A stretch of DNA of 64,000 nt from a virus (taxonomy: Duplodnaviria; Caudoviricetes), in the IMG/VR virus record IMGVR_UViG_3300028410_000746. One strand, 5' to 3'. The position numbers and the translations under genes are program-made. Below, piece by piece: positions 5,530 to 34,692 of the stretch; the stretch's first letter is position 1, and each line of letters begins with the position of its first letter. The notes beneath the pieces are model-generated. The model searched no databases. It saw only the letters and a list, made by a program, of their open reading frames with translations, and was not told where the DNA came from.

Positions 5530-5997
5530 TTAAGGCTCGAAGGCCACAGCATCGACAGGCTGACCCATCTCCTCCAAGCCCTCACACAGGGGGCAGTTGA
5601 TACCGTGCTCCCAGCACACCTTGCCGGCTTGGTGTTTCGGAGAGCCCTCATGGCTACGCGCCGGAGCGGCTGGCCCGGCCGGACGACTCATCCCTACCCA
5701 GGTATCCCCACTCTCTATGCGCAGAAGAGACCAACGCCGACCGCCATAAACGAAAGTCCGACCCGAACGCTCCTGCGACTCCCACCACATCCGAATCGTA
5801 GCCAAGGAGGTGGTCTCCAGGCCCAAGGACTCATTGGCCTCGAACCTGAAATACAAGAACCATCCCGCCTCATAGCCGCTTGACGAGACACGCAGCTCTA
5901 CGACCTCATGCGAGGTAAACAAGGGCGCACCGATGTGAGGTAAAAGCAGCTCCTCCAGGAAGTCTGACGTCCGGCTCACAGCCTCTCGCTCATCCAT
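5530..5997 (-). CDS. hypothetical protein with C-terminal CxxH..CPxC motif
   Basis: 155 aa ORF downstream of a sigma70-like promoter. Confidence 0.6.
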   Translation of the reverse strand: MDEREAVSRTSDFLEELLLPHIGAPLFTSHEVVELRVSSSGYEAGWFLYFRFEANESLGLETTSLATIRMWWESQERSGRTFVYGGRRWSLLRIESGDTWVGMSRPAGPAAPARSHEGSPKHQAGKVCWEHGINCPLCEGLEEMGQPVDAVAFEP

Positions 5998-6032
5998 AAC
6001 ACACCTTCATACCCTTGTAACGTAGTAGACGT

Positions 6033-6066
6033 AAAATACCCCTTGACGCTTGGTAGTGTCAAGGGG
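6033..6066 (-). terminator. intrinsic terminator with an embedded sigma70-like promoter
   Basis: CCCCTTGACACT-ACCA-AGCGTCAAGGGG stem followed by TATTTT; TTGACA (6062-6057), 18 nt, TATTTT (6038-6033). Confidence 0.55.
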
Positions 6067-6091
6067 CATATACGTGGACCTCAAGAGAGAC

Positions 6092-6901
6092 TCAGACCGA
6101 CTCGGCCTCGTAGCGGCCGTTGCCCATGTTGCGAATGACGTCTCGGCTGGTCTGGGGTATCTCGACCAGGATCGAACGAACATAGTTGCTGCGGTTGTAC
6201 TCATCGTCATAGTAGTAGTCGTCGTCAAACGAGCTACGCGCCTCCTTGTAGACGTCGACACGCACGACATCACCCGCCTCAACCCGACGGAGCACCTCTT
6301 CAAGGCCACCGCGACGAACCGAAGGTGCGCCCTTGAGCGCATCCCAGCCTCGGAAGGCCTCAGCCGCATGCGTGTAGTCCGCGCCGCGCAGCTTCTCCTT
6401 CTGGAGAACGTAGTACACGAACTTGGCTGCATGACTCGCACCCGCCATGCGTACAGACGCCTCGCGCCAGCCGTCTCGCGTCTTCTCGATCTTGCCCTTG
6501 CTCGTCATGGGTATTTCGACCGTAATGTTCTGCTTGAGATCACCACGCACCATCTCATCCTCATCCTCATCGTACTCACTGAAGTACACGAACACGTCCA
6601 CCACCGTACCCGGAGAAGCCGAGGTGAGCGCCTCATCCAGGGGCTCAATGTCGGTGATGCCGTTCATAGACGACATGTTACGCTTCCAGGAGTCCCAGTC
6701 CTTGTAGACGATGGCCTCGTGAAGGTACTTCTTGCCCGACGCGCGCTCCTTGCGTAGAGCTTGCCGAACGATCTTGGCTGCGTACGAAGCAGCAGCGGCA
6801 GTACGCGTAGACGCCAGGGAGGCGATCACAGGCTTGAGGTGAGGACGCAGCTCAGGCTTGGTTTTGCCGAGGCGAATGAGACGGGCTTTGAGATCAGACA
6901 T
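6092..6901 (-). CDS. leader-tagged putative virion protein with a tandem internal duplication
   Basis: Starts MSDLKARLIRLGKTKPELRPHLKPVIASL; two similar segments (GTVVDVFVY..NITVEIPMTS / GDVVRVDVY..SILVEIPQTS). Confidence 0.7.
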   Translation of the reverse strand: MSDLKARLIRLGKTKPELRPHLKPVIASLASTRTAAAASYAAKIVRQALRKERASGKKYLHEAIVYKDWDSWKRNMSSMNGITDIEPLDEALTSASPGTVVDVFVYFSEYDEDEDEMVRGDLKQNITVEIPMTSKGKIEKTRDGWREASVRMAGASHAAKFVYYVLQKEKLRGADYTHAAEAFRGWDALKGAPSVRRGGLEEVLRRVEAGDVVRVDVYKEARSSFDDDYYYDDEYNRSNYVRSILVEIPQTSRDVIRNMGNGRYEAESV

Positions 6902-7834: not shown

Positions 7835-8001
7835 GGGTCCGAAGACCTGACAAGCTCCCGGCGCCGTCTCCCCTACTCCTGAAGGTCACCCCCCACAGGG
7901 ACATCACAGTGTAACTCGCCCGGCTCCATCGAACGCTTATGCCCAAAGGCCACGAAAGGCACGGAGTACATCAGGGTCTCGCCCATCCCATTATAATGAA
8001 T

Positions 8002-8090
8002 GGGACATCCCCGCTCGCGCGGGGAACACTATACAGTGCGTGGAGTGGGCGGCGTCAAGGGCGGGACATCCCCGCTCGCGCGGGGAACAC
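8002..8090 (-). CRISPR. orphan type I-E mini-array (2 repeats, 1 spacer)
   Basis: Two identical 28-nt repeats GTGTTCCCCGCGCGAGCGGGGATGTCCC (8063-8090, 8002-8029), 61-nt period, palindromic CCCCGC/GCGGGG stem; resembles the E. coli-type I-E repeat GTGTTCCCCGCGCCAGCGGGGATAAACCG. Confidence 0.85.
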
Positions 8091-8189
8091 TCTTCAAATG
8101 TTCAAGCCTTCGGAAGTGTACCTAACCCCCTGTATTCGCTCAGGAATCCTGTTGGCATGGGGTGCGCCGTTTTGCTTTACCAACTCTTA
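8091..8189 (-). promoter_or_regulatory. CRISPR leader-like sequence
   Basis: AT-richer non-coding stretch 5' of the first repeat; ends AACATTTGAAGA-repeat; contains GAGTTGGTAAAG, similar to GTTGGTAGA in I-E leaders. Confidence 0.55.
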
Positions 8190-8228
8190 CCCTGTGGTAT
8201 ACCCCTGTGGTATACCCCTGTGGTACAC
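8190..8228. repeat. 3 x 13-bp tandem repeat CCCTGTGGTA(T/C)AC
   Basis: Units 8190-8202, 8203-8215, 8216-8228; contains GGTATACC palindromes. Confidence 0.9.
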
Positions 8229-8248
8229 CTCTCCGACTCATGAGAAGG

Positions 8249-8277
8249 ACCCTACCTCAAGAGAAGGGGGACGTCAA
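8249..8277 (-). promoter_or_regulatory. sigma70-like promoter driving the mini-CRISPR unit
   Basis: TTGACG-N17-TAGGGT pointing toward the leader and array. Confidence 0.55.
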
Positions 8278-8304
8278 GCCTCTGTTGCCAAAAACTCTCC
8301 CAGG

Positions 8305-8329
8305 CGCAGGCGGACGACGCCCGCCTGCG
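8305..8329 (-). terminator. probable terminator after the split neck gene
   Basis: 9-bp stem CGCAGGCGG/CCGCCTGCG; T-run a few nt downstream. Confidence 0.4.
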
Positions 8330-8353
8330 TCTGGATCTCACCCTCCCACAGGG

Positions 8354-9001
8354 TCAGATTCCCATGAATTTACGGGGGGTTAGCGTACCGTTACCTGTAA
8401 TCGGACCAAAACTCGACCTCACGCCCAGGCCATAGCGGCTCTGTTTCAGGCCACGCATGTACTTGACCGTACGAGCCTTGCCGTCGGTCATCATCTTCTC
8501 GAACTGCTGCTCGGCGTTGCCCTTCAAGGACTCGTACTTGGAACTGCGCTCGATGTCCAGATTGATACCGCCAATGGAGTACGAGTTATGCGCCAGGATG
8601 CCGTTGGTGAGTACGAAGTTCTCATCTCCAGGCACACTCAAGTCATAGGTGTATACACGAGCAAGGGCTTCCGTGTGCGCCGTCAAACGAGATCCCGAAG
8701 CCTGAGAAGAACCCTCCACACATACCGCCAAGGCATCCCCTACCTTGAGATCCTGAGCCAAAGCTTCACGTACCGCCCCATCTGGCCGGTACTCAAAGAC
8801 CGAGTGATCCCCCGTACACGTCACAACCCTGCCCTGCGCATCCTCCAGCCGCACCATCGGCTTGTGTGGTGTATGGTGACGCATCACATCAGAGACCCGA
8901 GACCAACGTACACGCCCCGTAGAAGTCTCGACGCTACGAACCTCCAAAGAACCCTCTCGCAAGGCGTTCAGGAGCCACTCTCGCTCATTATCGCTCAACA
9001 T
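8354..9001 (-). CDS. split intein C-fragment (139 aa) plus C-extein (76 aa) of a putative neck protein
   Basis: Block B TCTGDH, block F YDLSVPGDENF, block G LAHN followed by Ser+1 (codon 8582-8584); extein SYSIGGINLDIERSSKY... Confidence 0.85.
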   Translation of the reverse strand: MLSDNEREWLLNALREGSLEVRSVETSTGRVRWSRVSDVMRHHTPHKPMVRLEDAQGRVVTCTGDHSVFEYRPDGAVREALAQDLKVGDALAVCVEGSSQASGSRLTAHTEALARVYTYDLSVPGDENFVLTNGILAHNSYSIGGINLDIERSSKYESLKGNAEQQFEKMMTDGKARTVKYMRGLKQSRYGLGVRSSFGPITGNGTLTPRKFMGI

Positions 9002-9939
9002 ACCTGCACCTTATTGAAGAATCGTATAGCCCGGTCCAAACACCCGTCGTAATCGCGCTGCAACTCATGCTCCCACAGCACCAACACCTCCCAACCACCT
9101 CGCGCAAGGTACGCCAACTTGGCGAGGTCTCTTCTGCGATTGGAGGGAGGCCCCTCCAGACCACATAACAAACAGGAGTGCCAGTATCAGCCATGTATCT
9201 CCAACACCTTGCGCATCTCCGGCTGCACCTCATCACAGGTGTAGTACCCAATAGCGTACTCCGTCTCCAAGTCCTGCACCCCATTGCGAACCAATGCCGC
9301 CTTAAAGTTCAGATGAAGCTGTGAGGTGGCCTGAATAAACGTGCGCGCGTGCGCGGCTGACTGTCGAGACTGCTCCGGGTGTGACGCATGCCAGGACAAG
9401 ACAGCCTCGCGCAAATCACCGCCCTCCTGCCACCGCTCCAGGGATTGAGCGGATACGGCCTGCCGCCGCCCCTCCGTCTGGTTCAATGCGATGAACTCAG
9501 CCCTGCGCGTACCCTCTTGCATCCGCTCCCGCGAAGTCTGAGCAATCCGCAGGCGAGTGTGTACCCCTTCAGGAGACTGAAAATGCTCTAACATGGCCCG
9601 TGACTGGTGAGCCTTCTGTTCTGGGCTCTTCCGTCGACGTACAGTAGTCGTAGCACACGCCAGAGGCGCTTTCGGGTACTTCGTACGATACCCGTCCAAA
9701 TCAAGCGAGGCGCATGCCTGCAAGTGTAGGGATGTAATCGCAGCCACCCAGGCCCCACAACAACGACACACTACGTAATGCGTACCCTCCACCAACGCGT
9801 CTAGCGACGCCACAGACACACACGTTCGGCGCCCGGCCTTACGCGCTTGAACGTCACCGCTCTCGATCAAGGTAACCAAATGCCGTGCGTTCAGTCCATG
9901 CCTGAGTTGCGCCTGTCGTTTTGATATCCACTCACTCAT
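8995..9939 (-). pseudogene. Vsr-like homing endonuclease with an in-frame TGA at 9187-9189 (nonsense, readthrough or Sec)
   Basis: ATG 9939 overlaps the IntN stop; HTH, CxxC Zn finger, then ETEY..CDE..VLEIHG*YWHSC..RRDLAKLAYLARGGWEVLVLWEHE; the frame continues 64 codons to a TGA overlapping the ATG of IntC. Confidence 0.75.
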
Positions 9940-10702
9940 GAGCCTCAGCTTCCACCTGGAGGGCATACAGCTCTTCCATCGACACCTGAATCTCCTGCCC
10001 TCCAGACACACGTACCGTAACCAAGGTCTCCCCGGCAAGCGAGAATTCGTCCGCAACCCAATTGAACGTGAGCGCCATCGCAGCCTGAGCCATGGCCCCC
10101 GTGATGATCCACACGATCCAATTTCGCTGAGCGGACACCATCATGTCCATGCTCAGGTAACCCGTAGCCGGGGGGTAGGAGTTGATGAGCATGGTCGCCT
10201 GATCCATGTACTCAAGCAGCTCCTCGTCCTCCCAGATGTAGGCGAACACGCGATTGAACTGGTTCACGGTCCCCGACGAGGTGGGAGGCCTGAAGTGGTA
10301 GTTGCGGTCAGGGTTGTTGTCCCTCAAACGGATGCGGATGCGGCGGATCATATCGAGCTGCGTCGCCGTGTAACGCGTCGTCAGGAGCTGGGAGGGTTCC
10401 ACGATCTGGAACTCTTGAAGGAGCGTGTTCTCAGGATCACCCGACAGCTCCACGAGGGTCCAACGAATACGATAGAGACCGAACGCTACGAACTCGGGCA
10501 CCTGGAAGTGGGCGTAGTATTGACCCACGCCCACGCGCACGGGCACGTGAGCCGGAGGTCCAATGAGGACCTCGCTGCCCGTCGTGACGTCGTAGAGCGC
10601 GTATGTGATGGAGAACGGGTCGACAGGCACGTCCAAGCTGTCCAGAACCTCGATGGCGAGGTCCGTAGGCGTCGTGATAGACCCTCGTGTCAGCTCAAGC
10701 AT
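9932..10702 (-). CDS. N-extein (220 aa) of a putative neck/head-tail protein plus split intein N-fragment (36 aa)
   Basis: ...FNWVADEF|SLAGETLVTVRVSGGQEIQVSMEELY: intein block A starting with Ser at 10042; joined exteins read ADEF-SYSIGG. Confidence 0.8.
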   Translation of the reverse strand: MLELTRGSITTPTDLAIEVLDSLDVPVDPFSITYALYDVTTGSEVLIGPPAHVPVRVGVGQYYAHFQVPEFVAFGLYRIRWTLVELSGDPENTLLQEFQIVEPSQLLTTRYTATQLDMIRRIRIRLRDNNPDRNYHFRPPTSSGTVNQFNRVFAYIWEDEELLEYMDQATMLINSYPPATGYLSMDMMVSAQRNWIVWIITGAMAQAAMALTFNWVADEFSLAGETLVTVRVSGGQEIQVSMEELYALQVEAEAHE

Positions 10703-10726
10703 GCGAACTCCGGGAAAGAAGGGGAA

Positions 10727-10747
10727 GCCGCCCCCACGGGAGGCGGC
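10727..10747 (-). terminator. possible terminator
   Basis: GCCGCCTCC-CGT-GGGGGCGGC stem followed by TTCCCCTTCTTT. Confidence 0.4.
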
Positions 10748-10761
10748 CCCTCGCGCGGCAC

Positions 10762-11925
10762 TCAGAAGTGCTCACGGAGGAAGTTGGAGAACGTCCACGC
10801 GACCTCTTCAAGATCGGACGGAAGGTCCTCCAGCATACGATAATGTGTACGGTCTTCGAGGCCTTCCACGAGGCTCTCAGCCGTGGAAGCGAGGTCCTCA
10901 CTCATCTTGACAACCTTGGCCAAAGACGACTTGGAGAGGGCGGAGTAGGCTCCGCGACGGAGAAGGTCGAGCCCTCGCATGAGGTCCTTGACGCCATCGA
11001 CATCACGCTCAAGCTTCTTGAGGTCCCGGCCATAAGCCTTCAAGATCCGGACCAAGGTGCCCTCGACGACATCCTCGTACGCGCCCTGAATGCGGGACTC
11101 CTTCTCAGCCTCTACCGATGCCGAGAAGTCGTTCTGCATCAAGGTCTGGATTCGATCGAAGGCGCGCTTGACCTCGGCAGTCTTGGCGACCGCCTTGAGA
11201 GCCTTGGAGGGGTCCGAGAACATGGGGCTGAACTCGCGCGGAGTGCCTCCATCACCGGAACACTCCATGTAGACCTCATAGGAGTACGTGCCCATCTTCT
11301 CCAGCATCTCCTCGACGAAGAGCGGAGCGGACGCGTCCATGTCAACGACGTCAGCCGGCTTGGGAGTCACAGGCACGAGGTCCAGCTCAGGAGCAGCCTG
11401 ATCACGAGGGTTGAGGAGAGCGTCTTCCAGGCCTCGCTGGTTCTGACGCAGGCTCTCAGCGCGATCACGCTGGGCCTGCTGATCCTGCTTCGTGACGAAC
11501 GGATGCCCCTTGAGGTAATAATTGTCCCATGCCACCATGTCCGCATTGGCAGGATCGAGAGCCATCTCACGGAGCACGAGCTGCACGCGGTTGGCGAAAT
11601 CCTGGAAGGCCTGAAGCGTGCTCCGGCTCACGTCCCCCGTGAACCCCTTGCGGTACTCGTCCGGGAAGTTGTTCTGGAACTCCAGGTCGAGGAGACCTTC
11701 CACAAGCTGCCCACTGAGGCCGGGCCCCATATCCCCACGCACGTCTGCGCTGTACGCCACACGAAGCGCTCCGTACGCGCTAGCGTGCAGCCTTCGACGC
11801 TGGGCCGAACGAGTAAGCACCTCCTGACGAGTCACCGTCAGGGAGGCGATCACCGGCTTGAGGTGTGCACGCAGCTTCGGAGTTGAGCTGCCAATGCGAA
11901 TGAGACGTTGCTTTAGAGTGCGCAT
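10762..11925 (-). CDS. leader-tagged putative virion protein
   Basis: Starts MRTLKQRLIRIGSSTPKLRAHLKPVIASL; 387 aa, helical. Confidence 0.75.
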   Translation of the reverse strand: MRTLKQRLIRIGSSTPKLRAHLKPVIASLTVTRQEVLTRSAQRRRLHASAYGALRVAYSADVRGDMGPGLSGQLVEGLLDLEFQNNFPDEYRKGFTGDVSRSTLQAFQDFANRVQLVLREMALDPANADMVAWDNYYLKGHPFVTKQDQQAQRDRAESLRQNQRGLEDALLNPRDQAAPELDLVPVTPKPADVVDMDASAPLFVEEMLEKMGTYSYEVYMECSGDGGTPREFSPMFSDPSKALKAVAKTAEVKRAFDRIQTLMQNDFSASVEAEKESRIQGAYEDVVEGTLVRILKAYGRDLKKLERDVDGVKDLMRGLDLLRRGAYSALSKSSLAKVVKMSEDLASTAESLVEGLEDRTHYRMLEDLPSDLEEVAWTFSNFLREHF

Positions 11926-24504: not shown

Positions 24505-26028
24505 TCAATTAAGAAAACGAGAGTGGGACAGAGCAGCGGCAGCCTCTGGTCGAGTCGGAACCCTTCCGTGCTGCTTGGTGAAGGTCTTGAGGTACTCCAT
24601 ATTGGAGCCGTATCGGCAAATACCACCAACCTTGATGAGCGTGGCGTAGAAGTCCATCGGAAGCATCTCACGATCCGAGCCTTCACGATCAGCAAGGATC
24701 AGGGCCCCCACGATGTCCGTGTTGGCGAAGCGAGGCTTGAGGGTCTCGTAGTGCTCGGGCTTGTCCATCGTATAGAGCAGCGCGAAGATTCGGCGGCGAC
24801 GGTTGATGTCCGACAGCTCTCGTGCGTAGCGACGAGAGAAGATCGCATACGCCGTACGCGCGATCGAGGAGTGCTGGATGGAGTCGTTAGGAGCCATCTC
24901 CCCCTCAGGCATGTCCTTGGTCTCGGGAGCGTCGCGAAGGTCATCACGCAGTTCGCGCATGGCCTTGTCTTTGACCTTCTCCTTGAACTGCTCTACCGCC
25001 TCGTCGACCGGGTTCTTGGGAGCCTCTTCCTCCTCACCGCCTTCCTCATCCTCATCGAAGCCGAACGCCAGCTTGAGCTGCGAGTTGACCTCCTCCCTGG
25101 CAATACGTGCCGAGAGAGCTGCGGTCTTGCGGAACATGTCCGTCCACTCCGCCTGGATACCAGCAGGAACCGTATAAGCGTGCTGAATGCGAGCCTCAAG
25201 GTCCGTGGTCTCATACCGAGAAGGAGTATGCGTCGTAGGACCTCCGGGAAGCACCGACCTCAACACGGCGCCCTTGAACGCGGGATTGCCCACCCACGAG
25301 CCCTCGATGAAGCTCACCGAGTCTGGATCAGTGTGGTGACCACAAAGCTCCGCCACGACGTGAATCGCTCCATCGGGACCGACGAACTTGTTGCCCTTCT
25401 CATACTTGACGTGACGACACAGCTCCGCGTCATCCTTGGCGCGGTTGCCGCACTTGGTGCACGTCGAATAGGCGATGGTGCAGCCCATGGACAGCGTGTT
25501 CAGCTCACCGCTCTCAATGCGTGCGATGAGATCGCGGTGCTTGCGGTCCGTCGCCACCAGGATGTCTACGTAAACCGTATCACCCAGATCACGCGCCACT
25601 GCGTCAATGATCTTGCCCTTGGACAGCTCCGGGATCTGGATATGCTCGACGTAGTTCTCGGCTCCCACGAACGTCTGATACGTCGCCATGAGGAGCTTAC
25701 GCTCCCAGGCGTCGCCGTTGGCGTTGATGTACTTGGAGCACCCAGGAGTGATCAGATAGTCCGAGTACGGACGGTTGATGCTCTCACCATCATCGTTCTG
25801 GACGCTGGCTCCCGTCTTGACGTTAGGAGCCTCATCCACGTCTACCGATGCGATGATCGTGCAGTGCGTCAGGAGGTACTTGTCGGGGCTAAACTTGCCC
25901 AGAAGGTCCGACGCCGTACGGCTGCGATGCGCGCCCGCAGTCACAGCGTTGGCACGCGTCACGTTCCACTGGTCCACGCCAATGATTGGATGCTGTACCA
26001 CAGCGTTTGCAATACGAATCATGGCCAT
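24505..26028 (-). CDS. prohead (capsid maturation) protease with a Zn-binding insert
   Basis: ENY..H...SKGKIIDA; LSMGC...STCTKCGN...CRH; FIEGSWVGNPAF..A; head-module position. Confidence 0.75.
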   Translation of the reverse strand: MAMIRIANAVVQHPIIGVDQWNVTRANAVTAGAHRSRTASDLLGKFSPDKYLLTHCTIIASVDVDEAPNVKTGASVQNDDGESINRPYSDYLITPGCSKYINANGDAWERKLLMATYQTFVGAENYVEHIQIPELSKGKIIDAVARDLGDTVYVDILVATDRKHRDLIARIESGELNTLSMGCTIAYSTCTKCGNRAKDDAELCRHVKYEKGNKFVGPDGAIHVVAELCGHHTDPDSVSFIEGSWVGNPAFKGAVLRSVLPGGPTTHTPSRYETTDLEARIQHAYTVPAGIQAEWTDMFRKTAALSARIAREEVNSQLKLAFGFDEDEEGGEEEEAPKNPVDEAVEQFKEKVKDKAMRELRDDLRDAPETKDMPEGEMAPNDSIQHSSIARTAYAIFSRRYARELSDINRRRRIFALLYTMDKPEHYETLKPRFANTDIVGALILADREGSDREMLPMDFYATLIKVGGICRYGSNMEYLKTFTKQHGRVPTRPEAAAALSHSRFLN

Positions 26029-28045: not shown

Positions 28046-30145
28046 TCAAGTCGTGATACGCTTTAGGATCGTCAACAGGCGATCGTAGGTGGGCGCGTCG
28101 ATCATGCCTGCGTAGCGGTAGCCGCTGGCAGTCAGGATACCGAGGTCCAGGGCTGTGCCATAGAGAGAGTCCTCAGAAGCTCCCGGCATATCCCGCACAA
28201 ACGAGAGGCGATCCGTCTCCAGCCAAACCTTGGCCTCCGACAGGATCTCCGCGTAATCCTCGTTGAGCAGCGACATCGAACCCGACGGGAGCGTCCAGTT
28301 CGGAGACGGCGGCCTCTCCGAAACCGGCAAGCGACCGGGAAGGCCTCTGTACTGAGCCACGCGGTTGCGTCGAGAGAGTGCACGGGTGAAGCCGTCGGAG
28401 AAGGCCTGAGCTGTTTTGTTTGACTTCATGAGGTCCTCCAAGAGAGACGTAAAGAACGCAGCAAACGACGAGTCTACCGCCTCGGGGGTCTTGGTACTCT
28501 CCTGATCCTTCTTGCGGCGCGTCAAGTAGACCTTGACCTGCACCGGATCAAATACACGCGCTCGGCCCGGCTCCTCCGGAGAGAGGCGGAGCTGCTCAAA
28601 GTAACCCTTGGTCAAGAAGTCCGCTGTCAGCTCGTCCATAAGACGCTGCTTGAACGCGGGCTCCAGGATAGCCGTCGCAGCCTGAGTGTTCGGACCGATA
28701 TCGAGAGCCATACGGTAACCGGGTTCGTCCTTGACAAGCTCCACAAGGTCTTTATCGGATAGCTTGCGGATCTTCTCCACGAAATCAGATACCTGAGCCT
28801 CATCCGTAAAGTCGACCTCGGAGGGTTTCAGCCCATCTCCGCTCGCAGCCTCCAGACGAGACAGCACACGCCCATAGGTCGTCGTCTCATCCGGAGCCTT
28901 CTTGCGCGACAAGGATACAAGGGGCTCCTTCAGCTCCGTGTAATACTTCTGCGCGGAGGAGCCCTTCTCCGAGTCCTTGATGAGCGCATCAAGCTGGGCC
29001 ACACCTGCGTCCACATCCTTCTGAGAGGAGAAGAGGGCCGCCTGATACAGCTTGGGGCTATCGTAGTTGAGCTGGCGAACCAAGCCACGATCACTCAACG
29101 CGTTCAAGGCCTTCTTGTCGGGCAAGAGAGACTCAAGCGTGTTCTCCTCTCCCAGAGACGGGAGGTTACGCAGGCGAGCGCGCGCGCCCTCGAAGACTGA
29201 CTTCACCTGCTCGTAGTACATGCGCTGGACAGGGTTGTTCTCGAACCCGGCCTGCGTCAGCTTCTCGGAGACGTCCTGGAGCGCTGAATCGTGATCGTAC
29301 ACGTCCCAGTTGCTCGCATGGTCTTCCAGGACCTTCTTTGTGTCCGCGTCCAGCTCCCCACGAAACCCCTCAGGCATCTCGTCCATACCCTTGGGGTAGG
29401 AGGCCTTCTGCTCCATCATCACGCGCTGTGCAGCCTGAGCCTGCACCGAGTCCGGGTCATCCGAGACGCCCACATCATACAGGTCATCATAGGACGCACC
29501 TGAATCACGAAAGGCCTGCGCCTGTGTATCAATGAGCACCTGCCGCTGCTCTCCACGGGAGTCGTCGATATTATCTGGGACCACCTCCTCGCCAGAGACC
29601 TCCGGAACGTTGTCACGCATCTCGTTTAGAAGCTCTCGCTCCATGTCCGTGATCGCGTCATCGTCCTCCCCCTCTTCTCCTGCGTCACCGGACGCAGCCT
29701 CCGCGCTCTCTTCACCGGCATCAGCCTCCTCCGGCTCTTCACGGATCTTGAGCTGGCGAGGGTTCTTGGGCTTCTCCGCCTCACCCTCGGAGTCCTTTGC
29801 AGACTCATCCTCCTCGGAGCCGCCCTCCTCCGAGTCTTTGACCACGTGATCCTTACGGTCCGCACCTGGATGAGCCTCCTGATACGTGTCCCAGGCCTCC
29901 TCGGTGGCGAACTCAGCCCCCATGAACAGACGTGAGACACGCTGGGCGAGAGTCTCCCCACCAATGTCTTTGTAGTTGAGCGAGAGGTCCCTGTCCTTGC
30001 CGTCCGTGTCCTTGTCCTTGGGCTGGATGCGGCCGCGCTCCTTGTCCCGGCGAGGAGGCTTGTTCTTGGGAGAGGGACGCACCAAGCGCTCCGCCTCCTC
30101 TTGCTCGCGCTCCGCGTCGCTCTTCGTGGCTTTACGGTGTGTCAT
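28046..30145 (-). CDS. large putative head-associated protein
   Basis: About 700 aa directly downstream of the portal; basic N-terminus, acidic linker, RVSRLF and RVAQY motifs. Confidence 0.7.
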   Translation of the reverse strand: MTHRKATKSDAEREQEEAERLVRPSPKNKPPRRDKERGRIQPKDKDTDGKDRDLSLNYKDIGGETLAQRVSRLFMGAEFATEEAWDTYQEAHPGADRKDHVVKDSEEGGSEEDESAKDSEGEAEKPKNPRQLKIREEPEEADAGEESAEAASGDAGEEGEDDDAITDMERELLNEMRDNVPEVSGEEVVPDNIDDSRGEQRQVLIDTQAQAFRDSGASYDDLYDVGVSDDPDSVQAQAAQRVMMEQKASYPKGMDEMPEGFRGELDADTKKVLEDHASNWDVYDHDSALQDVSEKLTQAGFENNPVQRMYYEQVKSVFEGARARLRNLPSLGEENTLESLLPDKKALNALSDRGLVRQLNYDSPKLYQAALFSSQKDVDAGVAQLDALIKDSEKGSSAQKYYTELKEPLVSLSRKKAPDETTTYGRVLSRLEAASGDGLKPSEVDFTDEAQVSDFVEKIRKLSDKDLVELVKDEPGYRMALDIGPNTQAATAILEPAFKQRLMDELTADFLTKGYFEQLRLSPEEPGRARVFDPVQVKVYLTRRKKDQESTKTPEAVDSSFAAFFTSLLEDLMKSNKTAQAFSDGFTRALSRRNRVAQYRGLPGRLPVSERPPSPNWTLPSGSMSLLNEDYAEILSEAKVWLETDRLSFVRDMPGASEDSLYGTALDLGILTASGYRYAGMIDAPTYDRLLTILKRITT

Positions 30146-32084
30146 CGGTCTTGTCCTCGCGTTGCGTGTGAGATGCACTCATCATACGGCGCACCTGTTC
30201 CCCAAGCTGGGGATTCGACTGCAAGGCTCCTGTAATGTACGACGCCAGATCCTGGACGCTCGACGGGATAACCCCCGGCGACGGCTGCGAACCCTGTACC
30301 GACCCGAAGCGCGAGTTGGTGTCCTTGGGAGGGCTGTAGGACAGCTTGAGGTAGTCCGCAGTACGCTCCAGGAGATCGGTCTGCTCCGGAAGCGCGCGAC
30401 CAACCTCCGAGTAGGAGGACCTCAGGATCTCGTTGAAGAGCGAGTCGTTCATCGTCAAGAAGTCCTGACGCAGACGCTCCTCGACAGCCTGAGGGTCCAG
30501 GTTGAACAGCTCCAGGATGTACCCCACGCTCAAGCTGCCCTTCTGATACAGGTTGAACATCGCATCGAACGTGTCCCTGTTGTCTCGAAGGGCCAGACGC
30601 GTAAAGCTCAGCTCGGGGTAGAGCACCACCAAGTTGCCAAACTCGTCCACCTCCGTGTAGCCCTTCTTGATGGCCACGGGACGGAACAGGTTCTCCTCCA
30701 CGTACTGCTGGATACGCTCGCGATAGAGCATGTAGCGCGTGTTGATCACCTCGATGTTGATACGCTCGCCCGAGTAGCTCGACTCACCCGTGAGCATCGA
30801 CTGAGTGACACCCAGACCGGCAAAGAGCTGACGATCCGTAATGTCGTACTCACCCGCCAAGTCCAGGAGCCTGTCTCGGGCCGAGATCTCCTCCCAGGTG
30901 ACCTGGAAGTTGGTGATCAGCGAGTAATCCGGGTCCATGAGCAGGAGGTCAACCTGCTCGCGCAGATCCTCCACGTCCGCCAGGGACATGTCCTCCGCAT
31001 ACACGAGCCTCTTGGGCGTCATGGCCCTGGACGCAATGGAGGTCTGAGCTTGACGCAGCTTGTCTCGGTACACCAGGGTGCGCATCACCGACTGAAGAAT
31101 CGACTCGCCGTGATCCTTACCCGCTTGACGGTTGCGCGACAAGTGGTATACAAAGGAGCCCTTCTCCGGGTCTGTACCCAGGGGGAGGTTCATATCCTGA
31201 GAGATGTACTCAATGATCTGCTCCGGGACATCCTCCAGCGCCTCAATAGCGGACTCGTCCCCTGCCATGGCAGCCTTGACCAGACCTTGAGTGGCGCCGT
31301 CAGGGATCAGCTCGACCTTGTACTTGTGTGAAAAGGAGTACGTCTCCAGAGAGACCTGATCGGGCGGGAGGATGATCACCCGGTCCCAACCTCGATAGTG
31401 AGCCTGCCGGTACGTCGCGATGGCCTCTTCAGCATCGGACCGACGAACCACGCGCATGGACGTCTCCCCCGTCTCCGTGTCCAGATGGTTGAGGGTCTCG
31501 GTGAAGACGTACTCCGGAACCTCAGGCTCGGTGTCCTCCGCGAACAGGAAGGCCTCCCCGATCACGTAGAACTCTCGGGTCGCATCCACGAGGACGTTGA
31601 GGAGGTCTATCTTCTTGACCATCTCCTCGTAGAACCTCAGGATCTCGCGATTCTTCTTGGCGTCCGTGCCCTTGGGCATGGTCAAACGCAGCTTGGAGAG
31701 CGGCAGCTCCGTGTGGAGGATCACCGCCTGCTGGACGTAGGGATCGTTGTTGTAGAAGAAGCGGTAGTACGACCGCATCTCAGCAAGGTTTTGCGGAAGC
31801 TCCAGGAAGTCCGTAGAGAGCTGCGGGGAGTACACGTTGGTGGCGCTGCCCATCGTCACGCCCGCGCCCCCACCAAAGCCGCCGCCGCCGCCGCCGCCGC
31901 CGCCACCGAAGCCATAACCGTATGAGCCCGATCCCCCGATGTAGTTGGCTGTGCGGTTCAGACGCGACGCAATCCGAGAAGAAGGACGCACCTCGGCCAG
32001 ACCCTGCGACGCGATCACCTTGCGGACGTGGGACACCGAAGAGACAATCTCGGCCTGCTCATTCTGTTCACGCAACGTAGCCAT
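30132..32084 (-). CDS. portal protein
   Basis: 650 aa downstream of TerL; FYNNDPYVQQAVILHTELPLS..., GESILQSVMRTLVY, YPELSFTRLAL features; N-terminal poly-Gly. Confidence 0.8.
   Translation of the reverse strand: MATLREQNEQAEIVSSVSHVRKVIASQGLAEVRPSSRIASRLNRTANYIGGSGSYGYGFGGGGGGGGGGFGGGAGVTMGSATNVYSPQLSTDFLELPQNLAEMRSYYRFFYNNDPYVQQAVILHTELPLSKLRLTMPKGTDAKKNREILRFYEEMVKKIDLLNVLVDATREFYVIGEAFLFAEDTEPEVPEYVFTETLNHLDTETGETSMRVVRRSDAEEAIATYRQAHYRGWDRVIILPPDQVSLETYSFSHKYKVELIPDGATQGLVKAAMAGDESAIEALEDVPEQIIEYISQDMNLPLGTDPEKGSFVYHLSRNRQAGKDHGESILQSVMRTLVYRDKLRQAQTSIASRAMTPKRLVYAEDMSLADVEDLREQVDLLLMDPDYSLITNFQVTWEEISARDRLLDLAGEYDITDRQLFAGLGVTQSMLTGESSYSGERINIEVINTRYMLYRERIQQYVEENLFRPVAIKKGYTEVDEFGNLVVLYPELSFTRLALRDNRDTFDAMFNLYQKGSLSVGYILELFNLDPQAVEERLRQDFLTMNDSLFNEILRSSYSEVGRALPEQTDLLERTADYLKLSYSPPKDTNSRFGSVQGSQPSPGVIPSSVQDLASYITGALQSNPQLGEQVRRMMSASHTQREDKTDDTP
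31878..31904. repeat. (GCC)9 tract encoding poly-Gly in the portal N-terminus
   Basis: Seen directly. Confidence 0.9.
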
Positions 32085-32706: not shown

Positions 32707-34692
32707 TCATCTCCTGCGTCGGTTCCAGCGCTCGATCTGCTTCAAGCGACCTCCCCGCTGATCGGTGTAGTTGTTGTGCCGACTCTTTCGACGCTGATAG
32801 GAAGCCACCGACGTGGGACCCGAGGGCCGGTCATCCGAACCTCCCCGCGCGCCGCGACCCGCGATGGCCGTCTGTTTCCCCGTAGCCATGGCGCTGAGCC
32901 AGACCGAGCGAACCAGAGCATCCGAAAAGTCATCGTGCTTCCCATCGGTTTGGGGAGCCTCTACCTCGATGATCTTCTTGGACTTGCGCGTCGCCCGAAG
33001 CTCCAACAGCTCCGTGATGTAGGGAGCATTCTTGGCATCTCCGGCGTCGAGGACCGAGGAAGCGGTGTCGTTGTCGTCCTCCGTGTTCACGTCACGCATC
33101 ATGTAGTCGTACAGCTCAAGTTTACCATGATACATCAGGGCCTTGAATGCGTCGAACATCTGGGACGTGTGATCCTTGGTGAACTGCTTGGACTTGATCT
33201 GCTCCAGCCCCATCTTGTCCAGGGTCTGCTGGAAGCTCAGACCCTGCCACTGGTCGAACAGGCCTTCTCGGACGTAAAACTTGCGCGAGACCTCCTTGAC
33301 CCAGGCGGCCATCTCATCGAAGTCGAGCATGTCCACGTGGACGATCTCCCGCGCGTACGGGACCATCGGAGCCTGCAAGTGGGGGTTGAGGTCGTACCAG
33401 TCATGACCTGCCTGCCACTCCTCGTGGTAGATGAGGCGGATACCATCAGCTTCGGGACGGGTGAGCACGAGCGACGTACGGTCCGAGACCACAGCGAGGT
33501 CGAGCCCCATGTAGTGCGCCTGACGCGCGCGGCCACGAATCTCAGGCTTGAGGTCCTTGAGCACGCACACCATGAGGTCTCGCTTACGCTCGATCCACGA
33601 GCTAACACGGTCCGTGAACTCCGCACCAAACTCCGTCGCAAAGACCGTCGGATCGTTGGCCTGGAAGTCCTCCAGGAAGGAGATGGGGACCTGCGGGTTG
33701 ACCTCCCACGTCGGCGCCTGAATCATGAGGAGATCGCGAGCAGGTGGACCACCAGCCTTGGACTGCGAATACGAGTTGTAGAAGAGACCCGACTTCGCAG
33801 AAGGCGAAGAGATCATGATCACACGGCCCTCAGAATGCGACGTGAGGTTCGTCTGAGACTGATTGGGGTCCGAGGGCCCGAACGTAGCTACCGAGGGCGT
33901 GACGGCGCTGTAAACGGACTGAGCAGACGACCCGCCCTTGTCCTTGAAGAAGGCGACCTCATCCAGAATGACGACGATGTTGGCGTAACCACGGATACCT
34001 GAGCTGGACGAGGAGAAGAACCTGATCTGACAGCTCGCCCGGCCATCATCACGCGCCGAACCCGTCTCCTCGATGTCGTGAGGAGTCTGGAACCTCATGA
34101 ACGACTGCGTGTCGTGTGACAGAAAGGGCGTGAAGAAGTCACAGTTGACGAAGTGGTTGCGAATAGCGTTGTAGAGGATCTGAGACTGATCCTTGGTCGG
34201 AGCGACCGTGGACAGGGTGATCTCAGCACCCTCAGCCATCCCGTAGTACCGCTGCGGGTCAAACTTGCGCAGGAGCCGGTAGATCTCGTAAGCCCCGATG
34301 ATCGACGAGATGAAGGACTTGCCAGAACGTCGACCAATAGGGAGGATCAGTCGGTGCCGCTCGTGATCTGGCTCCCGGATGTTGCATCGGCCCTCATTGA
34401 AGAGGTAGCCCATGTACTCGGCTTCGGTGAAGTTGTGGAAATGCTCCGCCTTGGCCGAGTCTCCATCGCGCCAGTTCTTGGGGATGCGAATCGTACGCTC
34501 GGAGCTGTTCAGCTCCAGGTTGTAATAGCACTTGAGGATGAACTGCTGCACCGGGAACAAGCGGATACGCTCACTAGGACCCATGTTCAACCCAAACGGG
34601 CTCTCCACGAACTCCTGGATGTTCATGGCCGAAGGGGTTTCGTCGGCCGTACTACGGCGTCCGGCTCGGCTAAATAGGGTTGAAAGATCCAT
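32707..34692 (-). CDS. terL: terminase large subunit
   Basis: Walker A GRRSGKS, Walker B VVILDEVAF, motif III MISSP, nuclease YMGLDLA and KHDDFSDA. Confidence 0.92.
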   Translation of the reverse strand: MDLSTLFSRAGRRSTADETPSAMNIQEFVESPFGLNMGPSERIRLFPVQQFILKCYYNLELNSSERTIRIPKNWRDGDSAKAEHFHNFTEAEYMGYLFNEGRCNIREPDHERHRLILPIGRRSGKSFISSIIGAYEIYRLLRKFDPQRYYGMAEGAEITLSTVAPTKDQSQILYNAIRNHFVNCDFFTPFLSHDTQSFMRFQTPHDIEETGSARDDGRASCQIRFFSSSSSGIRGYANIVVILDEVAFFKDKGGSSAQSVYSAVTPSVATFGPSDPNQSQTNLTSHSEGRVIMISSPSAKSGLFYNSYSQSKAGGPPARDLLMIQAPTWEVNPQVPISFLEDFQANDPTVFATEFGAEFTDRVSSWIERKRDLMVCVLKDLKPEIRGRARQAHYMGLDLAVVSDRTSLVLTRPEADGIRLIYHEEWQAGHDWYDLNPHLQAPMVPYAREIVHVDMLDFDEMAAWVKEVSRKFYVREGLFDQWQGLSFQQTLDKMGLEQIKSKQFTKDHTSQMFDAFKALMYHGKLELYDYMMRDVNTEDDNDTASSVLDAGDAKNAPYITELLELRATRKSKKIIEVEAPQTDGKHDDFSDALVRSVWLSAMATGKQTAIAGRGARGGSDDRPSGPTSVASYQRRKSRHNNYTDQRGGRLKQIERWNRRRR

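Follow-up and report, generated by a model that had tools for sequence, protein, structure and literature searches.

A probable fractured head-to-tail adaptor gene with an atypically split Ser1/Ser+1 intein and a stop-interrupted endonuclease gene in a huge phage

Described fractured genes and atypically split inteins

Fractured genes have been described by Dassa et al. (2009; PMC2677866), e.g. the Lake Gatun 'Terminase' locus, the source of the GOS-TerL intein. They consist of two host-protein ORFs on the same strand with split-intein sequences at their ends and a free-standing nuclease ORF between them. The same layout, likewise of phage origin, occurs at positions 8354-10702 of the window, the 64,000-nt stretch of the IMG/VR virus record IMGVR_UViG_3300028410_000746 (Caudoviricetes) that was analysed. 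The middle nucleases of the Dassa loci are Vsr-like or of the GIY-YIG type, and that of the window is probably Vsr-like. The 3′ end of the nuclease gene overlaps the downstream ORF by 6-69 bp in the Dassa loci and by 7 bp in the window. In the relatives L001, L002 and L087, it overlaps the start of the C-terminal intein part (IntC) by 8-17 bp. All hosts of Dassa et al. are enzymes of DNA synthesis, repair or packaging, whereas the host protein in the window is a probable non-enzymatic virion adaptor. Unlike those loci, the window carries a Ser1/Ser+1 intein and a nuclease gene with a helix-turn-helix (HTH), a MucR-like finger and a nonsense codon.

The PolB16 OarG intein (Pasch et al., 2023; PMC10189870) resembles the window intein in being metagenome-derived, naturally and atypically split, and of class 1 with Ser1 and Ser+1. 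Both inteins carry the His of the NX motif after an Arg or Lys, and the IntC of each contains two non-catalytic cysteines, of which one is located in block B. PolB16 OarG combines an N-terminal part (IntN) of 15 aa with an IntC of 168 aa and resides in a PolB DNA polymerase; the fragments in the window measure 36 and 139 aa. Sequence similarity between the two is weak (PDB 8cpo, E 0.018). In PolB16 OarG, the block B His is dispensable (PMC10189870). Cysteine-independent inteins with short fragments have been described as rare and as sought-after tools for labelling proteins and for semisynthesis (PMC10189870, PMC11923092). A literature search for inteins in head-tail adaptor or neck proteins, or in structural proteins of huge phages, found none, with thin coverage of subscription journals.

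The window locus is a new example of a known arrangement, a fractured gene with an atypically split, cysteine-independent intein. Very probably, it is a fractured adaptor gene in which a nuclease-split mini-intein restores a 296-aa protein, while the nuclease itself has decayed. A class 1 Ser1/Ser+1 mini-intein would interrupt the single-copy adaptor gene of a huge lake-water phage, and a free-standing Vsr-like homing-endonuclease gene would then have cut this intein in two after block A. The first ORF would yield the N-extein with IntN, the third ORF IntC with the C-extein. The two intein pieces would assemble into one HINT domain, and protein trans-splicing via oxyester intermediates would release the adaptor.

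The split intein and its alleles at the same site

All features of the locus lie on the minus strand. ORF1 (9932-10702) encodes 256 aa and ends with a TGA at 9932-9934. Its first 220 aa form the N-extein (10043..10702), which comprises an N-terminal Ig-like sandwich and most of the helical adaptor domain and ends with NWVADEF. The remaining 36 aa are the IntN (9935..10042; SLAGETLVTV...MEELY...). ORF3 (8354-9001, 215 aa, stop TGA at 8354-8356) joins the 139-aa IntC (8585..9001) to the C-extein (8354..8584), the 76 C-terminal residues of the adaptor-like protein (SYSIGGINLD...). Between them lies the free-standing endonuclease gene (8995..9939) of 314 codons, which contains one in-frame stop. 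Its start overlaps the stop of ORF1 (ATGAGTGA, 9939-9932), and the ORF3 start overlaps the end of the endonuclease frame (ATGTTGA, 9001-8995). A GGAG is located 6 nt ahead of the ORF1 ATG (10702), and an SD-like AAGGTG box 5 nt ahead of the ORF3 ATG (9001). A GC-rich hairpin with a T-rich tail (10724..10750, 12-pair stem with 9 GC) stands between ORF1 and the upstream gene, which ends at 10762, as a 5′ bracket of the three-gene unit. An independent Logan assembly of one DNA run, probably the source sample, is identical to 8300-10760 at a depth of about 17. The search of sequencing runs found the locus in this one DNA run, available as contigs, and in no RNA run. A blastn search of 8300-10760 against the phage collection yielded no match.

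The first-pass annotation of this DNA had proposed a Ser-initiated IntN of 36 aa and an IntC of 139 aa with TxxH, an F block and HN/S. Both proposals were borne out. The IntC match to the Pfam profile Intein_splicing (PF14890) lies far beyond chance, with an E-value of 5e-14 and a score of 52.8 bits (cut-off 35.8); a genome scan also picked up this splicing domain. Among solved mini-inteins, IntC matches the Pho VMA intein (3e-8), a PolB intein (7e-7), CDC21, TFIIB and PolB16. Residues 36-165 of the PolB intein 9hth align to IntC residues 3-138. The class 1 nucleophile is a Ser (10040-10042) right after ADEF. In IntC, the NX motif R41-H42 lies upstream of block B (N3), T63-G-D-H66. Block F reads YDLSVPG (Y119-D120...P124-G125), and block G (A137-H138-N139, ending ILAHN) provides the penultimate His and the terminal Asn directly before Ser+1 (S-Y-S-I-G-G).

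The catalytic columns are conserved beyond the window. H42, T63, D65, H66, Y119, D120, H138, N139 and Ser/Thr+1 are invariant even with the distant allele L088 in the alignment, and T63, D65 and H66 are invariant in alignments of split and cis alleles. The residue before the NX His is Arg or Lys in the window, L001, L002, L088, P0122 and P0125, Gln in L087, and Glu in P0121 and P0132. According to PMC10189870, this R-H pair is a specific feature of Ser1 inteins. The cut lies before block B, leaving IntN with block A/N2 only and IntC with NX, B, F and G. These residues support the assignment to a class 1 Ser1/Ser+1 HINT domain split after block A. A complex prediction of IntN with IntC reached an ipSAE of 0.81, compared to 0.01 for the best control; the applied mark is attained by 51 out of 78 complexes of solved structure and by 2 out of 108 mismatched pairs. 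The prediction runs have at least 91% of the contacts in common, with a partner pLDDT of at least 81 and an interface that includes block B and NX residues. The two halves are thus predicted to fold into one HINT domain, a result that may reflect likeness to, or memory of, the many solved inteins. We infer that the ORF1 and ORF3 products are joined by trans-splicing.

It is highly improbable that the halves splice no more and hold the adaptor fragments together non-covalently. Such a rescue has been reported for the fragmented NrdA of phage Aeh1, which is assembled by mobile-element-derived domains (PMC3045599). A dimerisation module would not need catalytic residues, so the conservation of Ser1, H42, T63/H66, H138/N139 and Ser/Thr+1 across the split alleles disfavours a purely non-covalent role. 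A retained domain of 175 aa at the conserved beta-hairpin start would also be hard to fit in a 12-fold ring. Trans-splicing, the preferred reading, would remove this domain and leave a product of 220 + 76 = 296 aa. Both this length and the junction ADEF-SYSIGG had been anticipated by the annotation; the intein-less homolog P0004, with 296 aa, reads ADEFSYSIGG uninterrupted. Intein-less homologs had been named as a check on the contiguity of the exteins, and at least 128 of them, about 296 aa in length, read ADEF[S/D]YSIGG. The N-extein shares 75-79% identity with residues 1-220 of the intein-less P0001, P0002 and P0004 (296/297 aa). The C-extein shares 86% identity with its counterpart in L001 and can be aligned to the C-termini of the intein-less homologs. 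The insertion point, NWxADEF/SYSIGG at the start of a beta-hairpin, lies within the most conserved motif of the host protein.

Ten homologs (P0121, P0122, P0125, P0131, P0132, P0134, P0146, P0150, P0166, P0243) carry a contiguous mini-intein of 157-196 aa at this exact site. All have Ser1, TxDH and a terminal HN followed by Ser or Thr. They share with the window the insertion point (xDEF/S ... HN/S or T-YSIGG), the Ser1 chemistry and 43-48% identity across IntC and C-extein; the IntN of the window aligns with their first ~35 residues. In contrast to the split alleles, they are without a nuclease gene and possess a linker of variable length at the place where the split alleles are cut. These cis mini-inteins likely represent the ancestral state and the target of the nuclease. 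IMG/VR loci with matches of ~1.25-1.33 kb, considered as further cis-intein alleles, turned out to represent not inteins but a paralog, located upstream, of the Ig-like domain.

Split N-halves were found in 35 homologs, with an IntN of 29-45 aa and Ser1 throughout (35/35), and IntC identity among split alleles is 33-54%. The three-gene layout recurs in L001, L002 and L087, which encode intact DUF559/Vsr-like ORFs of 313-319 aa. In L088, the two halves are separated by 5.9 kb of DNA with five unrelated ORFs but without a nuclease gene. Mapped onto a tree with 172 host proteins, the intein state requires 28 changes, compared to a shuffled mean of 34 and a minimum possible of 2. The distribution among these sequences appears very patchy, which bears only indirectly on homing. 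The claim of a new short-IntN intein stands as far as the atypical split with a 36-aa IntN is concerned. It falls short on uniqueness: judged by alignment, the window intein is one of a large natural family with split, cis and empty alleles at one site.

The endonuclease gene and its nonsense codon

The encoded domains are arranged in the order HTH, MucR-like zinc finger and Vsr-like/DUF559 nuclease. The corresponding Pfam matches (HTH_17, ROS_MUCR, DUF559, Vsr) are weak. The window protein stays under the cut-offs of DUF559 (16.1 vs 20.6 bits) and Vsr (12.7 vs 27 bits), while its relatives from L087 (27.1) and L001 (21.8) pass that of DUF559. A match to phrog_13076, 'endonuclease', was obtained at 1.6e-8. 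A profile of three members retrieved I-Bth0305I (3r3p; 8e-4) and Vsr (3e-3). At the corresponding position, L001 and L002 carry intact ORFs of 319 aa, with which the window endonuclease shares 42% and 39% identity, respectively. A protein homologue search with the read-through nuclease yielded none at E <= 0.001 though relatives exist, probably owing to a word-index limit, and an IMG/VR locus search with the nuclease alignment confirmed nothing.

The I-Bth0305I/Vsr-like (EDxHD) homing endonucleases (PMC3239194; PDB 3r3p) and E. coli Vsr are the best matches of solved structure, albeit weak ones. The motif ...D-E...E-x-x-G-C-Y/F-W-H...D... aligns with Asp51, Cys66, Phe67, Trp68, His69 and Asp97 of Vsr. 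Differences from these enzymes are another N-terminal DNA-binding part and the truncation by a TGA before the His. By these Pfam, PHROG and profile matches, the gene in the middle of the locus probably encodes a Vsr-like nuclease of the Dassa kind, as annotated.

The in-frame TGA (9187..9189, minus strand; context LEIHG-stop-YWHSC) is located 186 nt ahead of the ORF3 start. It occupies the position of an invariant Cys (GCYWHSC in L001 and L002, HGCFWH in Vsr). D236 and E247 are encoded before the TGA, Y252, W253, H254 and D271 only after it. The truncated product does not contain the full set of the catalytic Asp/His/Asp and the intercalating aromatic pair. All conserved residues 3′ of the TGA are still encoded in frame. 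Two assemblies, probably of one sample, back the TGA, as the Logan assembly has the same letters; an intact nuclease allele may be present as a minority in the sample. The nuclease is probably dead in this genome, because the stop replaces the invariant Cys, with the catalytic His and Asp following shortly after. A change of TGY to TGA would have removed a conserved Cys that acts as zinc ligand and is immediately followed by the DNA-intercalating YW and the catalytic residues. With its nuclease inactive, the homing cycle would have entered its decay phase here.

The nonsense codon also bears on translational coupling, which the annotation had assumed for all three ORFs. Both overlaps of stop and start codons are present, but the endonuclease gene is not one open ORF. 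Coupling of ORF3 to the nuclease is probably broken due to the in-frame TGA, and ORF3 would presumably be translated from its own AAGGTG box. Coupling would be restored if the nuclease were still made by readthrough or recoding of the TGA (leaky opal, suppressor tRNA or selenocysteine), perhaps keeping its levels low. A TGA in place of a Cys codon is the classic Sec/Cys position, the conserved residues behind it are intact and in frame, and the phage encodes an amber-suppressor-type tRNA and therefore does tamper with stop codons. Nevertheless, such recoding is very unlikely. Most long ORFs of this genome (98/143) terminate with TGA, and so do ORF1 and ORF3. No tRNA of the opal-suppressor (anticodon UCA) or Sec type was found within 127.7 kb of the genome. 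The RNA downstream folds no better than shuffled sequences (z -1.15), and its hairpin starts ~27 nt away from the TGA, unlike a bacterial SECIS; selenocysteine insertion was considered unlikely on these grounds. The intact nuclease relatives use an ordinary Cys codon at this position. Loss of the nuclease in this genome is the preferred reading.

The adaptor-like host protein and a possible fixed split

The annotation had regarded the host as a structural neck protein. Model comparison and gene location agree with this view. An AF2 model of the intein-less P0004 (pLDDT 83.6) matches, over residues 113-272, about 15 phage adaptor or neck chains with Z 7.3-11.0. The best match is Pa223 (9nwi_A; Z 11.0, rmsd 3.0, 109 aligned residues), and further matches comprise T4 gp13/14 (Z 10.1), KHP30 (Z 10.1), SU10, GP4, the 812 neck and the Mu neck. 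The helical core with its beta-hairpin superposes on adaptors of the T4 gp13/gp14 neck and the P22 gp4/T7 gp11 type (9lu4, 9nwi, 7wmp, 7z47, 8q01, 5ydn) over ~100-118 residues. Values of Z 8-11 for helical folds are suggestive, as common arrangements reach this range. The host protein is only 5-17% identical to these adaptors, has no sequence-family match with them and differs from them by an extra N-terminal Ig/macroglobulin-like domain (residues 1-106). P0002 matches phrog_17327, 'head-tail connector', weakly (1.2e-3). Pfam and PHROGs assigned no families to the N-half in the window and the neighbouring ORFs. Foldseek against the PDB returned Ig-like matches only, plus one weak adaptor match. 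Matches in BFVD are almost all unnamed, the best named one being Gp165 of phage G.

The gene is located in a head-neck-tail module. The genes for TerL (32707-34692), portal (30132-32084) and prohead protease (24505-26028) are located upstream on the same minus strand as ORF1. The host protein is probably a head-to-tail adaptor of the neck, as far as modelling and location can tell. A second adaptor copy was absent from the 127.7 kb searched, about a third of a phage genome estimated at ~373-440 kb. This scope, together with one of three ORFs already broken, would leave room for a decaying pseudogene whose halves are relics and whose adaptor is supplied by another gene. We regard that as extremely improbable. 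Neither extein half contains a frameshift or a stop, and both retain their full length and share 75-86% identity with close relatives. Many distant phages have preserved the split layout. A functional fractured adaptor gene is preferred, with the split intein kept under selection because the phage would need the joined adaptor.

From this family, dozens of diverse natural split inteins of the Ser1/Ser+1 type, with an IntN of 29-45 aa, are available. At one site, the family comprises empty and cis alleles, split alleles with a nuclease, a split allele with a dead nuclease (this genome) and a split-and-separated allele (L088). As the stages of the gene-breaking model of Dassa et al. all occur in one protein family, the model becomes testable by comparison. 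A fixed split, possibly co-opted as a step of neck assembly in this clade of huge phages, is conceivable but rather unlikely. If it were true, decay of the nuclease, as here, or its loss and a drift apart of the halves, as in L088, would leave the adaptor permanently dependent on two separately expressed polypeptides. Such dependence could control when, or in what quantity, the protein sealing the DNA-filled head becomes available. If splicing and the adaptor role hold, the locus would extend protein trans-splicing from enzymes of replication and packaging to a structural part of the virion. Neck construction in each infectious particle of these huge phages would then require a post-translational ligation.

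Anatomy of the split putative adaptor gene

ORF1 (9932-10702, minus strand, 256 aa, stop TGA at 9932-9934) reads through ...NWVADEF into 36 residues from SLAGETLVTV, a tail (IntN) that resembles intein block A. The middle frame extends on the same strand from an ATG at 9939, 5 bases before the end of the ORF1 stop, to the TGA at 8995-8997, and its end overlaps the ATG of ORF3 (9001) by 7 bases. ORF3 (8354-9001, minus strand, 215 aa) encodes a 139-aa IntC, followed up to the stop by the 76 residues (SYSIGGINLD...) of the C-extein. IntC carries R41-H42, block B (T63-G-D-H66), block F (Y119-D120...P-G) and block G (...ILAHN). The Pfam profile Intein_splicing recognises it at 52.8 bits (cut-off 35.8; E 5e-14), and its sequence matches the solved mini-inteins Pho VMA (3e-8), a PolB intein (7e-7), CDC21, TFIIB, RadA and PolB16. 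Coordinates and residue counts of the first-pass annotation were exact. Right after the ORF3 stop, in the gap to the next gene (8001-8332), lies a GC-rich inverted repeat, GCAGGCGG...CCGCCTGC (about 8305-8330).

A protein homology search yielded 931 relatives of the N-extein. The closest (P0001, P0002 and P0004; 75-79% identity) are intein-less adaptor-like proteins of 296-297 aa with an uninterrupted ...NW[VIT]ADEF[D/S]YSIGG.... The exteins add up to 296 residues (220 + 76), and the exact ADEFSYSIGG is present in P0004. A joined product of about 296 aa with the junction ADEF-SYSIGG had been predicted, with intein-less homologs proposed as a check; in these three the exteins are contiguous, rather than always apart.

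Ser1 and Ser+1 make this a predicted cysteine-independent class 1 intein. R41-H42 matches the NX motif, described by Pasch et al. (2023; PMC10189870) as a His after Arg/Lys, conserved in Ser1 inteins only and critical in three; neither alignment shows any variation at the His. IntC contains two non-catalytic Cys, C96 and, within block B, C62, and PolB16 is similar in this respect. Natural atypically split inteins have already been characterised, including the Ser1/Ser+1 PolB16 with a 15-aa IntN. In an ESMFold2 complex prediction, IntN and IntC, each with 5 extein residues, had an ipSAE of 0.81 (best control 0.01). In the reference sets, 51 of 78 solved complexes but 2 of 108 mismatched pairs attain the mark, and this predicted pass shows likeness to the many solved inteins rather than binding of the pair. 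At least 91% of contacts were common to the runs, with a partner pLDDT of at least 81. The predicted interface includes IntC 38-42 (NX) and 60-66 (block B), and chain residues 4-19 of IntN, which include Ser1.

The interrupted endonuclease frame

The three-gene layout is a 'fractured gene' as defined by Dassa et al. (PMC2677866). This reading of the first-pass annotation, including the split intein, is supported, with one factual correction. The putative Vsr-like endonuclease had been taken as one open, coupled ORF, but an in-frame TGA at 9187-9189 (LEIHG*YWHSC) interrupts it. The TGA column holds an invariant Cys (GCYWHSC) in the alignment with the intact 319-aa ORFs of two relatives at the same position, and corresponds to the Cys of HGCFWH in the Vsr alignment. 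Its neighbours in Vsr, according to Dassa et al. (PMC2677866), are Phe67/Trp68, which intercalate, and His69, which is catalytic. The predicted product stops after residue 250, without Y252, W253, H254 and D271. A single, probably recent nonsense change is indicated, because all conserved nuclease residues downstream are still encoded in the same frame.

Only one run contains this DNA; it comes from lake water of 2017 and probably from the source sample. In Logan's independent assembly of that run, 8300-10760 shows no difference from the window (depth about 17). TGA is the commonest stop codon of this genome's long ORFs. No UCA (opal-suppressor) tRNA was found in the 127.7 kb searched, and the RNA following the TGA folds no better than shuffled sequences. 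Together with the position at an invariant Cys, these results are the grounds on which the nuclease is read as inactivated; it is probably inactive in this phage. One of ten phage tRNAs detected by ARAGORN in the 127.7-kb record has the anticodon CTA (amber-suppressor type; G000:C1:13973-14046, outside the window). An AAGGTG box lies 5 nt upstream of the ORF3 ATG, and with the nuclease inactivated, ORF3 would be translated from this box.

Alleles and locus layouts in relatives

Of 269 retrieved homologs, at least 128 have no insertion at the intein site. N-halves account for 35 (IntN of 29-45 aa, Ser first in all), and 10 carry a contiguous mini-intein at the same point (157-196 aa; Ser1, TxDH, HN|S/T). 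The cut region of the split alleles aligns with a linker of variable length in the cis alleles. A quick FastTree tree of 172 N-exteins, sampled with a bias from the way of collection, requires 28 changes of intein state, against a mean of 34 after shuffling and a possible minimum of 2. The well-supported clade of the window's protein (5 members) contains 3 empty and 2 split alleles. This patchy distribution fits a mobile element. A second intein site, LRDN|C...N|SPDRNYHF, is occupied by Cys1 mini-inteins in the adaptor homologs P0123 and P0127, the latter bearing both a cis intein there and a split IntN at the ADEF site. About 1.1 kb downstream of the intein-less adaptor gene of locus L018, a fragment (5993-6208) is similar to the Vsr-like nuclease (30% identity), perhaps a homing endonuclease, free-standing or relic, beside an empty allele.

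The phage loci L001 (397-kb contig), L002 and L087 are ordered N-half, DUF559/Vsr-like ORF (313-319 aa) and C-half. In these loci the nuclease ORF and the start of IntC share 8-17 nt, a type of overlap that Dassa et al. stress for their fractured genes (6-69 bp between nuclease and downstream ORF). At locus L088 (4958-12243), 5.9 kb lie between the halves, and this interval holds a gene for a 1255-aa SNF2-like helicase and four small ORFs; none of the five is Vsr-like. The L088 IntC retains H42, T63, D65, H66, Y119, D120, H138, N139 and Ser+1. Catalytic residues conserved without a nuclease, in halves that are not co-translatable, are the strongest comparative argument for activity in trans, and the split inteins of the adaptor family probably work in this way. 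L084 is perhaps similar: after its N-half comes an ORF that reaches at least 421 aa where the contig ends. The nonsense codon is specific to the window's genome and places it as an intermediate, with the loci that have a nuclease on one side and L088, separated and nuclease-free, on the other.

The host protein as a putative adaptor

Pfam and PHROGs returned nothing for the host-protein half encoded in the window, while P0002 showed a weak 'head-tail connector' PHROGs match (1.2e-3). In the AF2 model of P0004 (60 homologs, pLDDT 83.6), residues 1-106 form an Ig/macroglobulin-like sandwich, followed by a helical domain in which a long helix (193-218) leads into a beta-hairpin (221-230). The intein position lies exactly between the two, within the motif that is best conserved across the family (W215, F220, Y222, S223, G226). 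About 15 phage adaptor or neck proteins top the structural search against representatives for residues 113-272. Among them are Pa223 (Z 11.0, rmsd 3.0, 109 aligned), T4 gp13/14 (Z 10.1) and KHP30 (Z 10.1), values also possible for helical folds in general. Further matches are A4, SU10, GP4, B2, Moo19, VP1, Carin1, DEV, the 812 neck, the PhiM1 adaptor and the Mu neck. Because the matches are uniformly adaptor or neck proteins and the gene follows those for terminase, portal and prohead protease, all on one strand, the modelled protein is probably a head-to-tail adaptor.

In ten IMG/VR huge-phage contigs (L021, L028, L033, L044, L047, L051, L053, L057, L063, L065), a paralog of the N-terminal Ig-like domain (~100 aa, about 300 nt, 26-37% identity) directly precedes the intein-less adaptor gene. 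Four otherwise different virion-module ORFs of the window (minus strand, starts near 6892, 11916, 12648 and 21114) open with a common leader of ~30 aa, MSDLKAxLIRxGxxKPELRxxLKPVIASL, which might serve as an address or propeptide tag in head loading.

The hosts of Dassa et al. are all DNA-metabolism or packaging enzymes, whereas the window's host is a putative adaptor. Their nearest case, the Lake Gatun Terminase locus (PMC2677866), is 'fractured at an unusual point', its C-part having every N-terminal motif except N1. In the literature searched, no head-to-tail adaptor with an intein, whether split or whole, was found. The 127.7-kb record (about 29% of the estimated genome) contains no second adaptor copy. 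The adaptor halves are probably joined by trans-splicing, and the virion would depend on this reaction.
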